Shown here one piece after another: positions 45,830 through 55,966 of a DNA stretch of 64,000 nt. The position numbers and the translations under genes were made by a program. Numbering within the stretch: position 1 is the stretch's first letter; each line of letters opens with the position of its first letter. A model generated the notes under the pieces. That model saw only the letters and a program-made list of their open reading frames with translations. It was not told the origin of the DNA and made no database searches. This stretch comes from Escherichia phage vB_EcoM_NBG1. Where the stretch lies: the sequence record MH243438.1. One strand, given 5' to 3'.

Positions 45830-48800
45830 ATGGCCGACATCAAACGTAAGTTCAGAGCCGAAGACGGTCTGGACGCCGGTGGCGACAAGATTGTTAACGT
45901 AGCATTAGCCGACCGTACAGTAGGTACTGATGGCGTAAACGTTGACTTCCTGGTACAAGAAAACACCGTTCAAGTATATGATTCTACGCGTGGATATAAC
46001 AAAGGATTTGTTGTTCTTTATGACAATCGTTTATATCAAGCAATAAATGATATCGTGTCTCCTTCCGGGGCATTTAACCTTTTACAATGGCGTGCAGTTC
46101 GTACTGATGCACAATGGATAACTGTAGCTTCTGGGACTTATCAACTTTCTTCAGGTGAATCGATTTCTGTTAACACTGGTGCCGGCAATGATATGGTTTT
46201 CACGTTGCCGAATACGCCGGTTGATGGCGATACTGTTGTTTTGGCTGATATTGGTGGAAGAACCGGGACAGTTAAAGTACAGATTAACGCGTCTGTGCAG
46301 AGTATTTTAAACTTTAGAGGTGAACAAGTTCGTACAGTTTTAATGACGCGCCCACGTTCACAACTATTGTTTGTGTTTAGTAATCGTTTGTGGCAGATGT
46401 ATATTACCGATTATGGTAAAGAATCAATCACTGTTACACCTGCGACACCATATCAAGCACAAGCAAATGATTTTATCGTTCGTCGTTTTACTAGTGCAGC
46501 ACCAATCAACATTACACTTCCACGTAATGCTAACAATGGTGATATAATCAGCCTAGTCGATTTAGATAAATTAAACCCACTGTATCATACAATTGTTAAA
46601 ACATTTGATGATACAACGTCTATTGGTGAAGTCGGGACTCATATTGCCGAAGGCAGAAATGACTCTGACGCGTTTTTTGTTTTTGATGCTGCAAGTAGTT
46701 TATGGCGTATATGGGAAGGCGACCAGAAATCGCGTCTTCGTATTATCCGTGCGGATTCAAATATTCGACCAAATGAAGAAGTTCTTATTTTTGGCACAAA
46801 TAACGCTACAACCGGAACTATTAATCTTACGCTGCCTACAGGAATTTTGAGTGGTGACACTGTTAAAATTTCAATGAACTACATGCGTAAAGGCCAAACA
46901 GTAAAAATTAAAGCTGCCGAAGGTGATACAATTGCTTCTTCTGTCGCATTACTTCAGTTCCCTAAACGTTCTGAATATCCACCTGATGCTCAATGGGTCT
47001 CTGTTACTGAACTAGAATTCAATGGCACTACTTCATATGTTCCTGTATTAGAATTAGCGTATATCGAAGACACCGATTCTGACACTCATTATTGGGTTGT
47101 GCAACAGAATGTCCCTACGGTAGAACGTGTCGATGCTGGAACTGATGCTACACGAGCTCGTTTAGGTGTTATTGCTCTTGCTACTCAAGCGCAAGCAAAT
47201 GTTGATTTAGAGAATACTCCAGCTAAAGAAGTGGCTATTACTCCTGAAACATTGGCAAATCGTACAGCAACTGAAGCTCGACGTGGTATCGCTAAAATTG
47301 CTACAACAGCACAAGTTAACCAGAATTCCACAGCATCATTTGTGGACGATACTATTGTTACGCCTAAAAAACTAAATGAGCGTACAGCAACTGAAACTCG
47401 TCGCGGTCTTGCTGAAATTGCTACTCAGGCTGAAACAGATGCTGGTCTTGATGACACAACGATTATTACACCTAAGAAATTGCAGGCACGTCAGGGCTCT
47501 GAAACACTGTCCGGTATAGTTAAATATGTATCAACTACTTCTGCTACTCCGGCTGCATCTCGTGGAACTGCAGGTACTAATGTTTATAATAAAGACACAA
47601 CCACGTTAACTATTTCTCCTAAAGCCCTTGACCAATATAAAGCAACTTATGCTCAACAAGGTGCAGTAATTTTAGCTGTTGATAGTGAAGTAATTGCTGG
47701 TCAATCTCAAGCAGGTTATTCTCACGCTGTAGTAACTCCTGAAACACTACATAAGAAAACTTCTACTGATGGACGTATTGGTTTAATTGAAATTGCTACG
47801 CAAGCAGAAACTAATGCTGGGACTGATTATACACGTGCAGTAACGCCTAAGACGTTAAATGATAGGAGAGCGACGGAAGGATTATCCGGCATAGCCGAAC
47901 TTGCTACGCAAGTCGAATTTGATACTGGAACTGATGATACTCGTATCTCGACTCCACTGAAAATTAAAACTCATTTTGATTCTTCTGACCGTACCAGTGT
48001 TAATTCTGATTCCGGACTTATTGAAGAAGGAACCTTGTGGAACCATTATACTCTTGATATTTCTAAAGCAAATGAAACACAACGTGGTACACTTCGCGTA
48101 GCGACCCAGGCAGAATCTAATGCAGGAACTTTAGATGATGTTCTTATTACTCCTAAAAAGCTTTTAGGGACTAAGTCCACTGAAACGTCTGAAGGTGTAA
48201 TCAAGGTTGCTACTCGGGCTGAAACTGTAACAGGAACTTCTGCTAATACAGCTGTATCGCCTAAGAATTTAAAATGGATTGTCCAGTCTGAACCAACATG
48301 GGCTGCTACTACGGCGATAAGAGGTTTTGTTAAAACTTCATCCGGTTCAATTACGTTCGTTGGTAATGATACAGTCGGTTCAACACAACCTTTAGAATCA
48401 TATGAAAAAAATAGCTATGCTATATCTCCATATGAATTAAACCGTGTACTTGCTAACTATTTGCCATTGAAAGCTAAAGCCGTAGATAGTAATTTATTAG
48501 ATGGCCTAGATTCATCTCAGTTCATTCGTAGGGACATTGCACAGACGGTTAATGGTTCACTAACCTTAACCCAACAAACGAATCTGAGTGCCCCTCTTGT
48601 ATCATCTAGTACTGCTACGTTTGGTGGGTCAGTTTCGGCAAATAGTACATTAACTATTTCTAACTCCGGAACAGCTACTCGTCTGATTTTTGAAAAAGGA
48701 CCTCAAACTGGAACTAATCCAGCACAGACGATGACTATCAGAGTTTGGGGAAATCAGTTTGGTGGCGGATCAGATACAACACGTTCTACTGTATTTGAAG

Positions 48801-49705
48801 TTGGTGATGAAACGTCTAATCATTTTTATTCTCAACGTAATAAAGATGGGAATATAGCGTTTAGCATTAGTGGTACTGTGATGCCAATAAACATTAATGC
48901 TTCCGGTTTGATGAATGTTAATGGCGTTGCAACATTCGGTCGTTCAGTTACTGCTAATGGCGAATTCATTAGTAAGTCTGCAAATGCTTTCAGAGCAATT
49001 AGTGGTGATTACGGATTCTTTATTCGTAATGACGCTGCTAATACCTATTTTATGCTCACTGCATCAGGCGATCAGACCGGCGGATTTAACGGATTACGTC
49101 CTTTAGCTATTAATAATGCATCCGGCCAAGTAACGATTGGTGAAGGCTTAATCATTGCCAAAGGTGCTACTATAAATTCAGGTGGTTTGACTGTTAACTC
49201 TAGAATTCGTTCTCAGGGTAATAAAACATCTGATTTATATACCCGTGCGCCAACATCTGATAATGTAGGATTCTGGTCAATTGATATTAACGATTCAGCC
49301 ACTTATAACCAGTTCCCAGGTTATTTTAAAATGGTTGAAAAAACTAATGAAGTGACTGGGCTTCCATACTTAGAACGTGGCGAAGAAGTTAAATCTCCTG
49401 GTACATTGACTCAGTTTGGTAACACACTTGATTCACTTTACCAAGATTGGATTACTTATCCAACAACCCCAGAAGCACGTACAACCCGTTGGACACGTAC
49501 ATGGCAGAAAACTAAAAATTCTTGGTCAAGTTTTGTTCAGGTGTTTGATGGCGGAAACCCTCCTCAACCTTCTGATATTGGCGCTTTACCTTCTGATAAT
49601 GCAACAATCGGAAACTTGACAATAAGGGATTTCTTAAGGATTGGTAATGTCCGCATTATTCCAGACCCTGTGAATAAATCTGTTAAATTCGAGTGGATTG
49701 AATAA
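45830..49705 (+). CDS. 34: Long tail fibre proximal subunit gp34
   Basis: 1291 aa; MADIKRKFRAEDGLDAGGDKIVNVALADRTVGTDGVNVDFL... and C-terminus match T4 gp34; late promoter 45792-45799. Confidence 0.97.
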   Translation: MADIKRKFRAEDGLDAGGDKIVNVALADRTVGTDGVNVDFLVQENTVQVYDSTRGYNKGFVVLYDNRLYQAINDIVSPSGAFNLLQWRAVRTDAQWITVASGTYQLSSGESISVNTGAGNDMVFTLPNTPVDGDTVVLADIGGRTGTVKVQINASVQSILNFRGEQVRTVLMTRPRSQLLFVFSNRLWQMYITDYGKESITVTPATPYQAQANDFIVRRFTSAAPINITLPRNANNGDIISLVDLDKLNPLYHTIVKTFDDTTSIGEVGTHIAEGRNDSDAFFVFDAASSLWRIWEGDQKSRLRIIRADSNIRPNEEVLIFGTNNATTGTINLTLPTGILSGDTVKISMNYMRKGQTVKIKAAEGDTIASSVALLQFPKRSEYPPDAQWVSVTELEFNGTTSYVPVLELAYIEDTDSDTHYWVVQQNVPTVERVDAGTDATRARLGVIALATQAQANVDLENTPAKEVAITPETLANRTATEARRGIAKIATTAQVNQNSTASFVDDTIVTPKKLNERTATETRRGLAEIATQAETDAGLDDTTIITPKKLQARQGSETLSGIVKYVSTTSATPAASRGTAGTNVYNKDTTTLTISPKALDQYKATYAQQGAVILAVDSEVIAGQSQAGYSHAVVTPETLHKKTSTDGRIGLIEIATQAETNAGTDYTRAVTPKTLNDRRATEGLSGIAELATQVEFDTGTDDTRISTPLKIKTHFDSSDRTSVNSDSGLIEEGTLWNHYTLDISKANETQRGTLRVATQAESNAGTLDDVLITPKKLLGTKSTETSEGVIKVATRAETVTGTSANTAVSPKNLKWIVQSEPTWAATTAIRGFVKTSSGSITFVGNDTVGSTQPLESYEKNSYAISPYELNRVLANYLPLKAKAVDSNLLDGLDSSQFIRRDIAQTVNGSLTLTQQTNLSAPLVSSSTATFGGSVSANSTLTISNSGTATRLIFEKGPQTGTNPAQTMTIRVWGNQFGGGSDTTRSTVFEVGDETSNHFYSQRNKDGNIAFSISGTVMPININASGLMNVNGVATFGRSVTANGEFISKSANAFRAISGDYGFFIRNDAANTYFMLTASGDQTGGFNGLRPLAINNASGQVTIGEGLIIAKGATINSGGLTVNSRIRSQGNKTSDLYTRAPTSDNVGFWSIDINDSATYNQFPGYFKMVEKTNEVTGLPYLERGEEVKSPGTLTQFGNTLDSLYQDWITYPTTPEARTTRWTRTWQKTKNSWSSFVQVFDGGNPPQPSDIGALPSDNATIGNLTIRDFLRIGNVRIIPDPVNKSVKFEWIE

Positions 49706-49713
49706 GAGGTATT

Positions 49714-50841
49714 ATGGAAAAATTTATGGCTAAGTTTGGACAAGGATACGTCCAAACGCCATTTTTATCGGAAAGCAATTCAGTACGATTTAAATTAAGC
49801 ATAGCGGGCTCTTGTCCGCTATCAACATCTCCTGCTTATATTAAGTTTCAAGATAATCCACTTGGGTCTCAGGTTTTTTCCGTTGGATTAAACGTTCGTG
49901 TAATAAATCCTACAACAGGTGCAGTAGTTGAATCTAAGACATATAATTTCTCTACTGAAAACGACGCCACGTCAAGTGCATTTGTTACTTTCATGGACAC
50001 ATATGCTTCAAATTTTATATTTGCTCTTGTTACTAACGCTAAAACAAACTTTCCACCTGAAGTTCTTGCATGGTTTACTAAAGCTGGGAGTTCTGCTATT
50101 CCATTAGCTCAACAAGTTTTAAATATAGTGGACATTTCTTATTCTGCATTTTATATTTCTGGTAAGAATGCTATAGCACTAGAACATATTAAGTATAGTA
50201 ATAAGAAAACTTCAACCGACTATAGTACACCACTTGATGTTGTGTATGACACTATCGATGATATTGGTGCTACCGGCTTCCCTAGACGTACGTATGAATC
50301 GTCAGACACATTTTTATCTGCCATTGGAGGTACTAATAATGAAATTAAAAGGATGCCTACAACATCCATTATTACACCTCTCGCTGGGTATAAATTGAAG
50401 CCTGGAGATTTCCTTTATATGAAATTCCAACTAATGGCCGATGCTGATTTGTTAGCACAAGGGACGACACGACTTTCTATTCGTTTCTTTAAATCTCCTT
50501 CTACTTCACCTATTTCATTTAAGGATATAAACTTTGACGGGGGTGCAGGTGAATGGAAGATATATGAAGACTACATAGAAATTCCTTCTGGTGCTGACGG
50601 GTTCACGATTTATTGTTATCGTACAGCTCCAGTCGGGCAAGGTGGATTAAGAAACGTTATATTCACTGAAGTATCATGTAATGGAAGCGTTTCAAAACCT
50701 GCTGAGTTTGGTATAAATGGTATTCGTGTAAATTATGTTTCAGAATCTTTAAGTGCTCCAGACATAATGACATTACCTACTCAATCTTCAACTGATACTG
50801 GTAAGGTATTTGGACAAGAATTTAAAGAAGCATCAGAATAA
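49714..50841 (+). CDS. 35: Long tail fibre hinge connector gp35
   Basis: 375 aa; synteny and size match T4 gp35. Confidence 0.9.
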   Translation: MEKFMAKFGQGYVQTPFLSESNSVRFKLSIAGSCPLSTSPAYIKFQDNPLGSQVFSVGLNVRVINPTTGAVVESKTYNFSTENDATSSAFVTFMDTYASNFIFALVTNAKTNFPPEVLAWFTKAGSSAIPLAQQVLNIVDISYSAFYISGKNAIALEHIKYSNKKTSTDYSTPLDVVYDTIDDIGATGFPRRTYESSDTFLSAIGGTNNEIKRMPTTSIITPLAGYKLKPGDFLYMKFQLMADADLLAQGTTRLSIRFFKSPSTSPISFKDINFDGGAGEWKIYEDYIEIPSGADGFTIYCYRTAPVGQGGLRNVIFTEVSCNGSVSKPAEFGINGIRVNYVSESLSAPDIMTLPTQSSTDTGKVFGQEFKEASE

Positions 50842-50903: not shown

Positions 50904-51569
50904 ATGGCCGATTTAAAAGCTGGTAGTACAACTGGCGGTGCTGTCATATGGCATCAAGGTAATTTCCCTTTAATGCCAGCAGGTGATGACGTCCTGTATA
51001 AAACGTTTAAACTCTATTCAGAATATAATAAACCACAAGCTGCTGATAACGATTTCGTTTCTAAAGCTAATGGTGGTACTTACGCTTCAAAGGTAACATT
51101 TAACAGTGGCGTGCAAATACCATATGCTATAAACAATACAAACCAAAGCGGTATTTTTCCTGGTAACGGTGATGCAGCTACTTTTGTTACAGCAAATATT
51201 GATATTGTTTCATGGTACGGTATTGGTTTTAAATCATCACAAGGAACAGCTGGTAGAACTGTAGTAATCAATACACGTAATGGTGATATTAATACAAAAG
51301 GCGTTGTGTCGGCAGCTGGTCAAGTAAGAAGCGATATGACTGCTCCGGTTGCAGCAAATGATCTCACAAGAAAAGATTATGTTGATGGAAGAATAAATAT
51401 TGTTACGGATAACGCAAATTCCCGTGTATTGCGTTCTGGCGATACCATGACTGGTACTTTAACAGCACCAAACTTTTTCTCACAGAATCCGGCGTCTGAG
51501 GCTAATCATGTTCCTCGTTTCGACCAGATTGTAATTAAAGATTCTGTTCAAGATTTCGGCTATTATTAA
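50904..51569 (+). CDS. 36: Long tail fibre hinge connector gp36
   Basis: 221 aa, same as T4 gp36; late promoter 50872-50879. Confidence 0.9.
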
Positions 51570-51577
51570 GAGGACTT

Positions 51578-54500
51578 ATGGCTACATTAAAACAGATACA
51601 ATTTAAAAGAAGCAAAGTAGCAGGAGTTAATCCTACTGCAGCACAATTAGCCGAAGGCGAATTAGCGATAAACTTAAAAGATCGAACTCTTTTTACCAAA
51701 GATGACCTCGGTAATATTATTAGCCTAGGCTTTGCTAAGGGCGGGGATATTAACGGTAATGTAACTCATGTAGGTAACTATACTCAGACAGGTACATTTA
51801 ATTTAATAGGCTCACAAAATGTTGCATCTGGTGGATATATCGAATTTGCTTATAAGGCCACCGGAGTTGGTTCTTGGGCTGGTCAACACACGGCAAAAGC
51901 CCCTATTTTCATGGATATTTCCGCATCAACCGCTACTTCAGAATATAACCCGTTAATTAAGCAACGTTATAAAGATGGTACTTTCTCATTAGGGACCTTA
52001 GTTAATGAAGGCTCAATGAAGATGCATTATATTGATGAAACAGGCACTTCGAAATATTGGACCTTTAACCGTAATGGTAATTTTCAAGTTGATTCCGGAA
52101 ATTTATTAGTAGCTAATGGATATTTAGTTACTCAAAGTAATATTGAAACTAAAGCTGGTTCTTTAATTGGTCCTAAAGTTATTACCAAAAATATCAATGT
52201 GAGCACTAAATCTTGGGACACTAATATTGATACTGCATATGATTTAGTTTCATTACCGACTTGGCAGTATACTCCAACCGAAACGGATTTGGATACTAAT
52301 GGTATAAACTACCTTCGTAAATTCCGCGGACATGTTTCTTCTGCTATTTTCCATGAAATTGCTGATGCTCGTTCAGGTAAACCACAGAATATTTCATATT
52401 GGACTGGACGCAATGCTGAAGTTTATCAATGGTCTTATACCACCGACGGGCGTATGTCTGTTGCTAATTCGATAGGTGTAGGTCTTGCCGATGTCGGCTC
52501 CCAAGGGCGTTATCCTTTGGCAACATTTGGTAAAGGTATTGCAATTGGTGATAATGACACTGGTGTTAAATGGGTTCGTGACGGTGTTATTGATTTGGTT
52601 GCTAATGGCATTTCGGCGGGTACAATAAACAGCAATGGTATTAACAGTACTAAAAAATTGATGGTTGGTTATAGCCGTGATTCCGGAACTACATGGGATT
52701 ACCCAAATAACAACCAAGCAATGTTTACTGCGCGTACCGATGTTGATGGTAATAATAATGGTGATGGTCAAACTCATATCGGTTATAGCAGTAATTCTAA
52801 AATGTATCACTATTTCCGTGGCACGGGTCGTATGTCCATTAGTATGGGTGATGGGCTTCTTGTTGAGCCTGGCATTTTAGATATTAAAACCGGTTCAAAT
52901 TCGTTAAATTTGCGTGCTGATGGTACCATCGCTTCTGTTCAAACATTAAAACTTAATAATGGATTATATTTTAATGGTGATGGAACTAATGCTTCTCTAG
53001 TTTTTAAAGCAGCTTCAGGTATTGATGGCACTAAGCAAATTTTGTGGGAAGGCGGTACTCGTGCTGGTCAGAATAAAAGCTATGTAACTGTTAAAGCATG
53101 GGGTAATTCATTTAACGCATCTGGCGATCGTAATCGTGAAACGGTTTTTGAAGTATCAGATGGGCAAGGATATTATTTTTATTCACAGCGTGTGGCTCCA
53201 AGTGGCTCTGAAACTACTGGGCCTGTTGTAACGCAGTTCAATGGACAAGTTAATGCTAGAGGAAGTATTATTACTGACGGAAGTTTTAAAGTTAATGGAT
53301 TAAGCACTTTAAATGGTGCAGTTACCATGAGCAATGGACTTAATTTAACAGGCGGTTCTTCTATCACAGGTCAAGTTAAAATTGGTGGAACAGCCGATGC
53401 ATTAAGAATTTGGGATGCTGAATATGGTGCTATTTTCCGTCGTTCTGAAGATAAATTTTATATAATTCCGACCCCAAAGGACGCTGGCGGAACTGGTGGT
53501 ATTTCCAACCTTCGTCCATTTACCATGACTCTTAGTACTGGTAAAATGGAATTTAAACATGATGTTGGACTTGGTGATAACGGCTCCGGCGGAAGCATAT
53601 TATTTGTAGATAACACTAACAAAGCCACTACTAATAATGGTCGTTTATACGTTAATATGTCAAGTGATGCTATAGTGCTTAATGCTCCTACACAAGAAAC
53701 ATCTAACTTTATCCAAGGACGCAAAGCTAACGTCACTAAATGGTATGTTGGTATTGGCGACAGCGGTGATTCTGTTCGTATGCATAGTTATGCATATTCC
53801 CACGGCTTGGTATTAAGTGCTAACTCCGTTGATATTACTAAACCTCTTAAAGTCGGAAATGCTCAATTCGGTACTGATGGTAATATCACCGGTGGTTCTG
53901 GTAATTTTGCTAACTTGAATACCACAATAAATAACCTTAAGACAGATATTGTCTCAAGTTATCCTATTGGTGCTCCGATTCCTTGGCCTACTGATACACC
54001 TCCTGAAGGTTATGCCATAATGGAAGGTCAAACTTTTGATGTTGGCTTGTATCCTAAGTTAGCGGCGGTGTATCCTTCCGGCGCTCTGCCTGATATGCGT
54101 GGTCAAACTATCAAGGGTAAACCGAGTGGTCGTGCAGTGTTGAGTGCAGAAGCTGATGGTGTTAAGTCACATAGCCATAGTGCAAGTGCATCAAGCACAG
54201 ATTTGGGTACTAAGACCACTTCTAGTTTTGATTACGGTACTAAAACATCTTCAAGCTTTGATTATGGTACTAAGACCAGTAATACCACTGGCAACCATAA
54301 CCATACAGTGAGTGGTAATACTGGTTCCGCTGGTGCGCACCAACACGCACGTTCAGGCCCTCAGATACAAGGCGGCGTACCCACTAGCATATTCTATGAT
54401 GGATACAATAGTGCGGGACCAAACTTCAACGCTAAAATCACTGGATCCGTGAGCGGTGCTACTGCATCGTCGAATATGGCCAAAACTTCTTCAGATGGTG

Positions 54501-54715
54501 CCCACACTCATAGTTGGTCAGGAACTACAAGTACCACAGGTAACCATGCCCACACCGTTGGTATTGGTGCCCATACACATACTGTAGGTATTGGTGCCCA
54601 CTCTCATTCGGTAGCGATTGGTTCTCATGGCCATACTATCACTGTAAATAGTACAGGTAATACAGAAAACACGGTTAAAAACATTGCTTTTAACTATATC
54701 GTTCGTTTAGCATAA
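51578..54715 (+). CDS. 37: Long tail fibre distal subunit gp37 (receptor-binding)
   Basis: 1045 aa; conserved N-terminus; C-terminal region has His-x-His repeats (HSHS, HNHT, HTHS, HAHT, HTHT, HSHS, HGHT) as in the T4 gp37 tip. Confidence 0.95.
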
Positions 54716-54717
54716 GG

Positions 54718-54742
54718 AGAAGGGACTTCGGTCCCTTTTTAT
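54718..54742 (+). terminator. Terminator after gene 37
   Basis: GAAGGGAC-TTCG-GTCCCTT followed by a T-run. Confidence 0.75.
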
Positions 54743-54745
54743 AAT

Positions 54746-55297
54746 ATGAAACTCTATCATTATTATTTTGACACTAAAGAATTTTACAAAGAAGAAAATT
54801 ATAAACCATTAAAAGGCGTAGGATTTCCGGCTCATTCGACACCAAAAAAACCTTTAGACCCTAAAGAAGGCTATGCTGTTGTATTTGATGAACGCGAACA
54901 AGAATGGGTATATGTTGAAGACCATCGTGGAAAAACAGTATGGACTTATGATAAGCAAAAAATTGTTATTGACACTCCAGGTGCTCTTCAAAATGTTACT
55001 ACAGAAGAACCTGGTGAATTTGACATTTGGACCGACGACGGGTGGAAGGAAGATGAAGCATATAAACGTGTAGTTCAACGTGATAAGAAAATTCATGAAC
55101 TCTATAAATTATTCAGTGTTTTAAGTTCTCTTATTGACGCAGATGTTGCTAATAGAGAAGAAAAACGAAAATTTAAAGAGCTCAAAAAATTCTTTGCCCT
55201 TTTAGAAAAACATGAACATCTTGGCGGCGAATTCCCTAAATTCCCTGACCTTGAAAACAAATCTATTATCAAAGCGATTATAAATATCTTTAAGTAA
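54746..55297 (+). CDS. 38: Tail fibre assembly chaperone gp38 (T4 type)
   Basis: 183 aa; MKLYHYYFDTKEFYKEENYKPLKG... and FALLEKHEHLGGEFP match T4 gp38. Confidence 0.92.
   Translation: MKLYHYYFDTKEFYKEENYKPLKGVGFPAHSTPKKPLDPKEGYAVVFDEREQEWVYVEDHRGKTVWTYDKQKIVIDTPGALQNVTTEEPGEFDIWTDDGWKEDEAYKRVVQRDKKIHELYKLFSVLSSLIDADVANREEKRKFKELKKFFALLEKHEHLGGEFPKFPDLENKSIIKAIINIFK
55279..55286 (+). promoter_or_regulatory. T4-type late promoter upstream of holin t
   Basis: TATAAATA 21 nt upstream of the t ATG, inside the 3' end of gene 38. Confidence 0.65.
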
Positions 55298-55306
55298 GGA
55301 GGTATT

Positions 55307-55966
55307 ATGGCAACACCAAAAGTATCATTTTCGCCTAGTGATATTCTATTTGGGTTGCTAGATCGTATTTTCAAAGATAACGCTACTGGAAAGGTTTTAA
55401 TGTCCCGAGTAGCGGTAATTATTCTTTTGTTCCTAATGGCACTAATATGGTACAAAGGAAGTATTTTGCTGGATTATTATGTAAGAGCTAAGTATGATAC
55501 TTATACTGAAATAATCCAAAAAGAACGAGCTTTACGTTTTGAATCTGCGGCTCTAGAACAACTGCAAATAGTTCATATCTCATCTGGTGCAGATTTTAGT
55601 GCTGTGTATTCTTTCAGACCTAAAAACTTAAATTATTTCGTCGACCTTATAGCTTATGAAGGCAAACTACCTAGCACAATTTCTGAAAAGTCCCTTGGCG
55701 GATTCCCAGTGGATAAAACGGCTAATGAATATATAATTCATTTAAGTGGCCGTCATTTCTCGTCTAAATCAGAATTTGCATTTTTGCCTACAAAATCTAA
55801 GACTGCCGAACTTTCTTATATGTATAGTTGTCCATACTTTAATTTGGATAACATCTATGCTGGAACTGTGACGATGTATTGGTATAAGGGGAATAATATA
55901 CTTGAGGAAGATCGCTTAGCGGCTATATGCAACCAAGCGGTCCGAATACTAGGAAGGGCTAAATAA
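55307..55966 (+). CDS. t: Holin T
   Basis: 219 aa; SFSPSDILFGLLDRIFKDNATGKVL... and C-terminus ILGRAK match T4 T holin; late promoter 55279-55286. Confidence 0.96.
   Translation: MATPKVSFSPSDILFGLLDRIFKDNATGKVLMSRVAVIILLFLMALIWYKGSILLDYYVRAKYDTYTEIIQKERALRFESAALEQLQIVHISSGADFSAVYSFRPKNLNYFVDLIAYEGKLPSTISEKSLGGFPVDKTANEYIIHLSGRHFSSKSEFAFLPTKSKTAELSYMYSCPYFNLDNIYAGTVTMYWYKGNNILEEDRLAAICNQAVRILGRAK

Follow-up and report, generated by a model that had tools for sequence, protein, structure and literature searches.

A T4-type receptor-binding tip with an additional paired needle module in the long tail fiber protein gp37 of Escherichia phage vB_EcoM_NBG1

[quoted passage not shown] The domain boundaries of this tip and the out-and-back topology of its chains are known (PMC9603124; PMC12609058), and its needle holds seven Fe ions that are coordinated by H-x-H pairs (PMC11705849). 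The T4 host-range mutations collected from the literature all map to the head (aa 932 to 959), and single substitutions in the head alter specificity. The sequence of the gp37 C terminus of phage TuIb (X55191) is said to have been reported by Montag, Hashemolhosseini, and Henning in 1990. TuIb uses OmpC (PMC9659904), and the BASEL phage FelixPlatter depends on ompC (PMC8594841).

Here we describe a histidine-rich array at positions 54150 to 54660 of the window, the whole 64,000-nucleotide stretch of vB_EcoM_NBG1 DNA that was analyzed (MH243438.1). We conclude, with a probability of roughly 0.85, that this interval corresponds to the stem and head (domain D11) in a gp37 receptor-binding tip of T4 type and TuIb subtype, with one extra paired module and a predicted eighth metal site, and that the head is an exchangeable receptor-binding cassette.

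The His-x-His array of gp37

Gene 37 (51578 to 54715; plus strand, as for all features given below) encodes the distal subunit of the long tail fiber, with 1,045 amino acids. The assignment is based on the open reading frame, on homology to T4 gp37 (46% identity in a full-length comparison), on Pfam matches (gp37_trimer, Collar, and Gp34_trimer), and on the closest genome, vB_Eco_F27, in which the counterpart is annotated as the distal subunit. An initial annotation of this DNA had pointed out at least seven H-x-H motifs at the C terminus of the protein. We count eight, with first residues at aa 865, 907, 921, 976, 990, 999, 1008, and 1017 (nucleotide starts, 54170, 54296, 54338, 54503, 54545, 54572, 54599, and 54626), and the two peptides that had been quoted are found at aa 878 to 901 ([24 protein letters not shown]) and aa 993 to 1020 ([28 protein letters not shown]). 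The interval 54150 to 54660 comprises aa 858 to 1028, which is nearly exactly the stem and head (domain D11 in T4) of the tip.

All 16 histidines within the last 190 residues of gp37 lie inside H-x-H motifs, and the other 855 residues contain 10 histidines. Shuffling the whole protein (20,000 shuffles) gave a mean of 0.6 and a maximum of 5 motifs, and shuffling only the last 190 residues gave a mean of 1.3 and a maximum of 7. Chance clustering is no explanation for the array. At the nucleotide level, one tandem array with a period of 30 nt (54200 to 54289; TRF boundaries, 54206 to 54278) has three units with 70 to 77% identity to the reference unit, and another with a period of 27 nt (54560 to 54622) has about 80% matches. 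These arrays are old, diverged duplications rather than recent ones. Scans of the entire 64,000-nt window for tRNAs and Rfam families returned no matches.

Organization of the tip and pairing of needle units

In a phmmer search against the PDB, query residues 1 to 271 aligned with residues 9 to 242 of the T4 gp37 tip (2xgf_A; E = 2.8e-84), and this full-length match bears out the equivalence to the metal-coordinating needle of T4 that had been claimed for the region. The T4 tip has seven His pairs (883/885, 915/917, 929/931, 966/968, 980/982, 989/991, and 998/1000), and every one of them has an aligned His pair in the NBG1 protein, so a lack of correspondence with the T4 iron-binding histidines was not seen. 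This end-to-end homology suggests that the T4 organization into collar, six-stranded needle, and head applies to the NBG1 protein as well.

The N-terminal part of the collar (the knob, D10) covers aa 793 to 863 (53954 to 54166), aligns with T4 residues 811 to 881, and includes the match to Pfam Collar PF07484 (aa 798 to 845; E = 4.1e-11). It is followed by the outgoing, or ascending, needle strand (aa 864 to 923; 54167 to 54346), which aligns with residues 882 to 931 of the T4 stem, has a 10-aa insertion, and carries His pairs 1 to 3 (54170 to 54178, 54296 to 54304, and 54338 to 54346), three 10-aa D-x-G-T-K units (54200 to 54289), and one 14-aa unit. The head, or tip domain (aa 924 to 969; 54347 to 54484), is predicted to be the receptor-contacting knob and is of the TuIb type; its 46 aa exceed the 28 aa of T4 (932 to 959) by 18 and cannot be aligned with them. 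The returning, or descending, strand (aa 970 to 1028; 54485 to 54661) aligns with residues 960 to 1009 of the T4 stem, has the 9-aa insertion VGIGAHSHS, and carries His pairs 4 to 8 (54503 to 54511, 54545 to 54553, 54572 to 54580, 54599 to 54607, and 54626 to 54634), one 14-aa unit, and three 9-aa steps (54545 to 54634). The Phage_fiber repeat PF03335 was matched in six stretches (25.2 bits, compared to a cutoff of 20). A C-terminal strand that re-enters the collar (aa 1029 to 1045, [17 protein letters not shown]; 54662 to 54712) completes the tip, and these 17 residues are identical to the C terminus of T4.

If the protein is built like that of T4, its three chains would each exit the collar, extend outward, form a small head, and run back, and together they would make up a six-stranded needle. 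At each H-x-H level, six imidazoles from the three chains may hold one axial metal ion (Fe2+ in T4). Compared to T4, the outgoing strand of the NBG1 protein is extended by one 10-aa unit and its returning strand by one 9-aa VGIGAHxHx unit, so that it has eight His pairs versus seven. The extra module combines these two units, D-x-G-T-K (10 aa) on the way outward and V-G-I-G-x-H-x-H-x (9 aa) on the way inward. Because one module is added, the needle of the presumed trimer is predicted to be longer by about 10 residues per strand (60 and 59 versus 50 and 50) and to have a putative eighth site, which may be occupied by metal.

The two additions follow a pattern seen among the homologues of the tip. 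The H-x-H spacing of 182 distinct C-terminal modules can be written as [12+10u][14]^m HEAD [14]^m [9]^u, with u = 1 to 4 and m = 0 to 2. The modules were parsed by their spacing vectors, as splitting at the largest H-x-H gap misassigns the head where the 14-aa unit is absent. In 181 of the 182 homologues, there are as many 10-aa units as 9-aa units (1 to 4); because the homologues are mutually related, fewer independent events lie behind this count than it suggests. Every parsed sequence also has as many 14-aa units ahead of the head as behind it (0 to 2), and the family ranges from 5 to 10 H-x-H motifs. The lone real exception, L003 (IMG/VR contig 3300030021_000020), has three 10-aa units and only two 9-aa steps; unless its contig is a misassembly, the pairing of units is not absolute.

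Given these equal numbers (10-aa with 9-aa and 14-aa with 14-aa), we infer that the two near-duplications are paired halves of a single structural module. The near-duplicated segments listed in the initial annotation are thus present, but it had not been recognized that they form a single additional needle module, with one half in the outgoing strand and the other in the returning strand. That the two strands have equal numbers of units also fits the out-and-back topology. A further proposal would make the needle a length-quantized rod of strictly paired units (10-aa with 9-aa, 1 to 4; 14-aa with 14-aa, 0 to 2) with 5 to 10 metal sites, in which the unit number tunes the reach of the head through the LPS layer to the porin. 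This proposal is tentative, and we think it unlikely; if it is true, needle length would be a second host-range variable alongside the head sequence. The pairing rule may be used as a design constraint for chimeric or shortened tips of the T4/lambda type, in which 10-aa and 9-aa units would be changed together, or 14-aa units on both sides, and as a quick check of the number of metal sites from sequence.

The head as the variable part of the tip

Among 37 distinct sequences of this architecture, mean pairwise identity is 70 to 74% in the stems and 83 to 85% in the collar but only 33% in the nonrepetitive head between His pairs 3 and 4, which is 30 to 55 aa long. Most likely, it is this small variable knob that decides to which bacteria the phage attaches. 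We propose that the His array is a conserved scaffold (at the DNA level, a pair of conserved flanks) and that the head, 46 aa long and bracketed by His pairs 3 and 4, would be a swappable receptor-binding cassette. The initial annotation had placed the variation in specificity in the repeat region. Variation does occur within the tip, but it is concentrated in the head, and the repeats belong to the conserved scaffold.

Comparison with vB_Eco_F27 (OP870146, WBF80286.1; Mosigvirus) likewise points to the head. The two phages have 98.8% nucleotide identity over 95% of genes 37 and 38 and share the eight His pairs, both extra units, and an identical descending repeat block, whereas F27 has another head cassette of similar length. 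The sequences differ at 154 positions in 3.7 kb, 108 of them within 54330 to 54520, with 3 differences over the first 2,366 nt of the gene. Most of the differences form a dense block (54323 to 54538), whose left edge falls between His pairs 2 and 3 and whose right edge falls between His pairs 4 and 5, directly followed by identity over 54539 to 54624.

This comparison bears on two ideas about the repeats. One is that the His-x-His motifs and duplicated segments are themselves the element of the fiber in which specificity varies. Their number does vary over the family, and Tetart et al. reportedly (by the title of a 1996 paper) found that small-domain duplications in the T4 adhesin expand host range. 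Yet the repeats are far better conserved than the head, the nine-residue repeat block at 54539 to 54624 is unchanged between this phage and F27 although the head has been replaced, and the T4 host-range mutations sit in residues 932 to 959, outside the repeats. We therefore consider this idea improbable. The other idea would give the repeats a complementary role at the DNA level, with the conserved His boxes and 14-aa repeats as patches of homology at which recombination moves head cassettes between phages. Its chances appear to us about even. The dense block of F27 differences is bounded within the His-pair repeats, and Tetart et al. are said, again by title (1998), to have described the swapping of adhesin specificity by recombination between conserved motifs. 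The same tip module also occurs on the unrelated fiber shafts of lambda-like prophages (PMC9659904). However, the nucleotide-level comparison is that of one genome pair, with breakpoints deduced from mismatch density, and a lower level of divergence begins at about 53944, so that several exchanges may be superimposed.

That gp37 itself carries the specificity depends on the type of gp38. Gene 38 (54746 to 55297), assigned by homology to T4 gp38, encodes a tail fiber assembly chaperone of 183 aa, which is 68% identical to its T4 counterpart (E = 8e-92; 179 residues aligned without gaps) and matches Pfam Caudo_TAP and PHROG 105 ("tail fiber assembly"; E = 1e-49). The earlier call of a T4-type chaperone, as opposed to a T2-type adhesin, agrees with all of these features. 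By analogy, gp38 (together with gp57A in T4) would fold the gp37 trimer and be absent from the virion. In the gap that separates the stop of gp37 from the start of gp38, folding revealed a hairpin with a UUCG loop (54717 to 54740; -15.7 kcal/mol, z = -3.4) at the split Shine-Dalgarno/AUG site of gene 38. T4 has an equivalent at the same place, the role of which has been described (PMC3014915). A scan for terminators after gene 37 found none, and we take the hairpin, by its T4 equivalent, for the split ribosome-binding site already known for gene 38 and not for a terminator. Because the tip is homologous to that of T4 and gp38 is of the chaperone type, gp37 is expected to be the host-range determinant, as had been proposed.

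The predominant arrangement among T4-type phages is that of T2, T6, and S16, in which the C terminus of gp37 is cleaved and a separate gp38 adhesin caps the fiber and binds the receptor (PMC3157838). For NBG1 this arrangement is refuted by the size of gp38 and its identity to the T4 chaperone and by a gp37 that has a complete collar, needle, and head module and the T4 C terminus, and we give it practically no weight. Just as little weight falls to a compositional accident, by which the array would be a low-complexity tail, rich in His, Gly, Ser, and Thr, without specific structure. The tip is indeed rich in G, S, and T, and single-chain AlphaFold2 models (based on alignments of 30 and then 67 sequences) have low confidence (mean pLDDT, 49.5 and 49.8; pTM, about 0.2) and are unusable. 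However, none of the shuffles attained eight motifs, the H-x-H positions vary hardly or not at all across alignments of 30 to 67 sequences, and the sequence of the region matches the crystal structure 2XGF, so that the accident is likewise refuted. A "Trojan horse" function, in which His pairs load the fiber with iron to mimic a siderophore and reach an iron uptake receptor, has been discussed for H-x-H-bearing fibers of marine phages (PMC11705849). We deem it very improbable for this phage, as the iron in T4 is buried on the needle axis and coordinated by His pairs (PMC11705849; PMC12609058), relatives with similar heads require the porin OmpC and not siderophore receptors (PMC8594841; PMC9659904), and nothing in the window points to siderophore mimicry.

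Relation to described tips

Overall, the feature is nothing out of the ordinary, namely a receptor-binding tip of a kind already described for the long tail fibers of T4-like phages. Its fold and iron sites have been published, as have the variable insert and the TuIb form with eight pairs, and the locus leaves current understanding unchanged. It is of practical use for work on the host range and receptor of this phage, in that host range would be predicted or engineered from the 46-aa head cassette (54347 to 54484) and not from the His repeats.

The closest match in layout is the gp37 C terminus of TuIb, in which three D-x-G-T-K units are likewise combined with eight H-x-H motifs, 52 aa separate His pair 3 from His pair 4, and the spacing vector is the same (42,14,55,14,9,9,9). 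The heads are 82.7% identical over 52 aa, with about nine substitutions in the cassette, and the head of FelixPlatter is 77% identical to that of NBG1. Based on these identities (77 to 83%), OmpC, possibly with LPS, is likely the receptor and is the first one to test. TuIb is filed under Tequatrovirus, whereas the genome closest to our sequence is a Mosigvirus. The TuIb-type layout is also found in F27 and in dozens of other T-even phages, and at least 25 phage records align to 54150 to 54720 over exactly 571 nt with 90 to 95% identity.

The likeness to T4 extends to the T4-type gp38 chaperone gene downstream and the hairpin that precedes it, whereas the fiber shaft is only about 46% identical overall. 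The fibers of T2, T6, and S16 occupy the same genome position and have the same function in primary receptor recognition, but their tip is unrelated, as it is a separate adhesin of about 260 aa with glycine-rich motifs and no His-pair needle. In the T4/lambda family of receptor-binding proteins, which includes lambda Stf and prophage side tail fibers (PMC9659904), a tip module of roughly 215 aa has the same conserved collar and His-repeat flanks around a receptor-specific insert of 30 to 70 aa, with a gp38/Tfa-type assembly gene after it. Bacterial genome records account for many of the tip homologues, consistent with prophages. Members of this family differ from NBG1 gp37 in their unrelated, shorter shafts and in needles that mostly have seven pairs (u = 2) or m = 0. 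Finally, in the long and short fiber tips of Bas63 (Felixounavirus), collar, needle, and head resemble those of T4 and six or seven His pairs are present, and the authors of that study suggest that His pairs increase in number with the length of the needle (PMC12609058); Bas63 belongs to a distant phage group and carries its tips on other shafts.

The T4-type tip of gp37

We conclude that the array of paired histidines at the end of gp37 is a textbook element of T-even tail fibres. The window holds a long-tail-fibre block with the gene order of T4: gene 34 (45830-49705), gene 35 for the hinge connector (49714-50841), gene 36 (50904-51569), gene 37 (51578-54715), gene 38 (54746-55297), and the holin gene t (55307-55966). 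Of the genomes in the phage collection, the closest, that of Escherichia phage vB_Eco_F27 (F27, a Mosigvirus), has the same order at this block and is 98.8% identical in nucleotides across 95% of genes 37-38. Across the whole 64 kb (1-64000), no tRNA genes were found, nor any Rfam families at the gathering threshold. Residues 58-129 of the gene 35 product match the Pfam family ILEI (interleukin-like EMT inducer; PF15711, E = 7e-07, 30.1 bits, cut-off 27), a surprising domain name in a fibre hinge protein.

Eight H-x-H motifs occur in gp37, starting at residues 865, 907, 921, 976, 990, 999, 1008, and 1017; the initial annotation had claimed at least seven, and both peptides it quoted are present. 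Within the last 190 residues every histidine, 16 in all, belongs to one of these motifs, and the remaining 855 residues contain ten histidines. In 20,000 shuffles of the whole protein the mean was 0.6 motifs and the maximum 5; when the shuffle was confined to the last 190 residues, the mean was 1.3 and the maximum 7. The DNA carries two arrays, one of 30-nt period with three units (54200-54289; TRF span 54206-54278) that match the reference unit at 70-77% identity, and one of 27-nt period (54560-54622) with about 80% matches. This divergence indicates that the duplications are old.

The last 271 residues match the crystallized T4 gp37 tip (PDB 2XGF) end to end (E = 2.8e-84). In pairwise alignment, all seven T4 His pairs (883/885, 915/917, 929/931, 966/968, 980/982, 989/991, and 998/1000) fall on His pairs here. 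A lack of correspondence to the T4 iron-binding histidines, the outcome that the initial annotation named as counting against its reading, therefore did not appear. The paired histidines of T4 coordinate seven iron ions (PMC11705849, PMC12609058) in a six-stranded needle (PMC12609058). The T4 tip comprises a knob or collar (residues 811-881 and 1010-1026), a thin, largely extended stem or needle (882-931 and 960-1009), and a small tip or head (932-959). Carried over through the alignment, these boundaries place the outgoing stem of the window protein at 864-923 (60 aa), the head at 924-969 (46 aa), the returning stem at 970-1028 (59 aa), and a closing strand identical to that of T4 at 1029-1045; the interval 54150-54660 encodes residues 858-1028. 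Relative to T4, the outgoing strand has a 10-aa insertion, a third D-x-G-T-K-T-x-x-x-x unit, and the returning strand a 9-aa insertion, a third V-G-I-G-A-H-x-H-x step that bears the eighth His pair. These two insertions are the near-duplicated segments remarked on earlier. The head is 18 aa longer than that of T4 and unalignable with it. Pfam adds to the evidence for this family a Collar domain at 798-845 and Phage_fiber short repeats in six stretches. Residues 513-649 (53114-53524) match the Gp34_trimer domain (PF21446, E = 2.9e-08), so this module is common to the proximal and distal half-fibres.

The product of gene 38 is, as proposed, a T4-type chaperone, with matches to Caudo_TAP and to the PHROG category "tail fiber assembly." At 183 aa and 68% identity to the T4 assembly chaperone, it is not an adhesin of the T2/T6 type, which is roughly 260 aa long (PMC3157838). 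Within 54713-54748, the 30 nt that separate the stop of gp37 from the AUG of gp38 contain a hairpin, GAGAAGGGAC-UUCG-GUCCCUUUUU (-15.7 kcal/mol, z = -3.4), with AAGGAG located 26 nt upstream of the AUG; a simple terminator scan made no call at this hairpin. T4 has GGGGC-UUCG-GCCC at the equivalent place, known as the "split" Shine-Dalgarno/AUG site of gene 38 (PMC3014915). The window hairpin is a site of this type, with its stem altered and its pairing kept.

The head as the variable element

The initial annotation was largely right in its interpretation, and imprecise on where specificity varies. It expected specificity to vary in the repeat region; the determinant does lie inside the interval, but in its non-repetitive part, the head, for which the repeats serve as scaffold. 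Among 37 distinct sequences with exactly the architecture of the window gp37, mean pairwise identity is 0.85 and 0.83 in the collar pieces, 0.74 and 0.70 in the stems, and 0.33 in the head, which ranges from 30 to 55 aa. The T4 mutations affecting host range or receptor contact that are listed in PMC5221442 and PMC9603124 lie in 932-959 (G938, T939, V941, G943, K945, Y949, Y953, A955, and others).

Comparison with F27 points to the same element. Across 3.7 kb, 154 aligned positions distinguish the two sequences, 108 of them within 54330-54520. Gene 37 (51578-54715, against L001 3001-6141 of F27) has only 3 differences within its first 2366 nt and diverges progressively from about 53944. Differences are dense from position 54323, which lies between His pairs 2 and 3, as far as 54538, which lies between pairs 4 and 5; beyond this block, the nine-residue repeats at 54539-54624 show no difference between the two phages. 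This is a clear mosaic junction within one gene, a replacement of the head cassette with conserved repeat sequence at its borders. It fits recombination between conserved motifs, reportedly the subject, by title, of Tetart et al. in 1998.

The window head shares 82.7% identity with the head of phage TuIb, whose receptor is OmpC (PMC9659904), and 77% with that of the BASEL phage FelixPlatter, which depends on ompC, a dependence that was complemented (PMC8594841). By this head similarity OmpC is the likely receptor, as a first guess only, because single substitutions alter specificity in T4 (PMC9603124).

Paired units in the needle and known relatives

Homologues were drawn from a 5.8-billion-protein search, IMG/VR loci, and a 50%-identity representative library, and each complete C-terminal module was encoded as the vector of spacings between consecutive H-x-H motifs. 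With one exception, the vector is [12+10u] [14]^m HEAD [14]^m [9]^u in 182 distinct modules, a count that overstates the independent events, as the homologues are related to each other; here u is the number of paired 10-aa outgoing and 9-aa returning units and m the number of 14-aa units on each side of the head. A first spacing of 22 aa accompanies one 9-aa step (1 module), 32 aa two (95 modules), 41 or 42 aa three (80 modules), and 52 aa four (4 modules). The 14-aa steps before and after the head are equal in all modules (0/0, 1/1, or 2/2), although a returning step of this type measures 15 aa in one homologue. Despite the relatedness of the homologues, several combinations of u and m exist, every one symmetric, with five to ten His pairs; T4 (u = 2, m = 1) has seven and the window gp37 (u = 3, m = 1) eight. 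One homologue outside this tabulation, P0228, is without the second outgoing His pair, and direct counting gives two D-x-G-T-K units (the second being FNYGTK) and two 9-aa steps, so it obeys the rule. The sole real exception is an IMG/VR contig (3300030021_000020, match 1501-2097), in which three 10-aa D-x-G-T-K units face two 9-aa His steps; its His pairs number seven, and its head resembles that of TuIb. It may be a truly unbalanced needle or an assembly artefact.

In an antiparallel needle, each outgoing unit would flank one returning unit, and with the units side by side, needle length would change only by a matched pair. If a uniform antiparallel register is assumed (i + j = 1892 in the window, 1891 in T4), the His pairs are evenly spaced, no two level, at intervals of 7-9 residues in the window gp37 and 6-9 in T4. 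Stem strands 909-914 and 979-984 (sum 1893) appear in the second of two low-confidence AlphaFold2 models, to which we give little weight.

Genome records of E. coli and Shigella contain the tip module in great numbers, in clusters of hundreds of members carried on short shafts. Its label there is sometimes "tape measure" or "terminase," pointing to open reading frames that may have been fused or mis-called in those records.

The eight-pair form is not new and had already been sequenced. Translation of the partial gene 37 of TuIb (X55191) gives the same architecture: the D-x-G-T-K unit occurs three times and the H-x-H motif eight times, and 52 residues separate His pairs 3 and 4. F27 gp37 (OP870146) also has this architecture. 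Against 54150-54720, at least 25 phage records give alignments of exactly 571 nt with 90-95% identity, led by phage 308Ecol101PP (94.7%). The family, including T4, TuIa, TuIb, lambda Stf, and more than 200 phages, has been described as having a receptor-specific insert of 30-70 aa flanked by conserved sequence, with a gp38-like gene adjoining (PMC9659904). Scaling of His-pair number with needle length has been suggested for Bas63 (PMC12609058). What our analysis adds is limited to stating outright that needle units pair one to one, a modest refinement.
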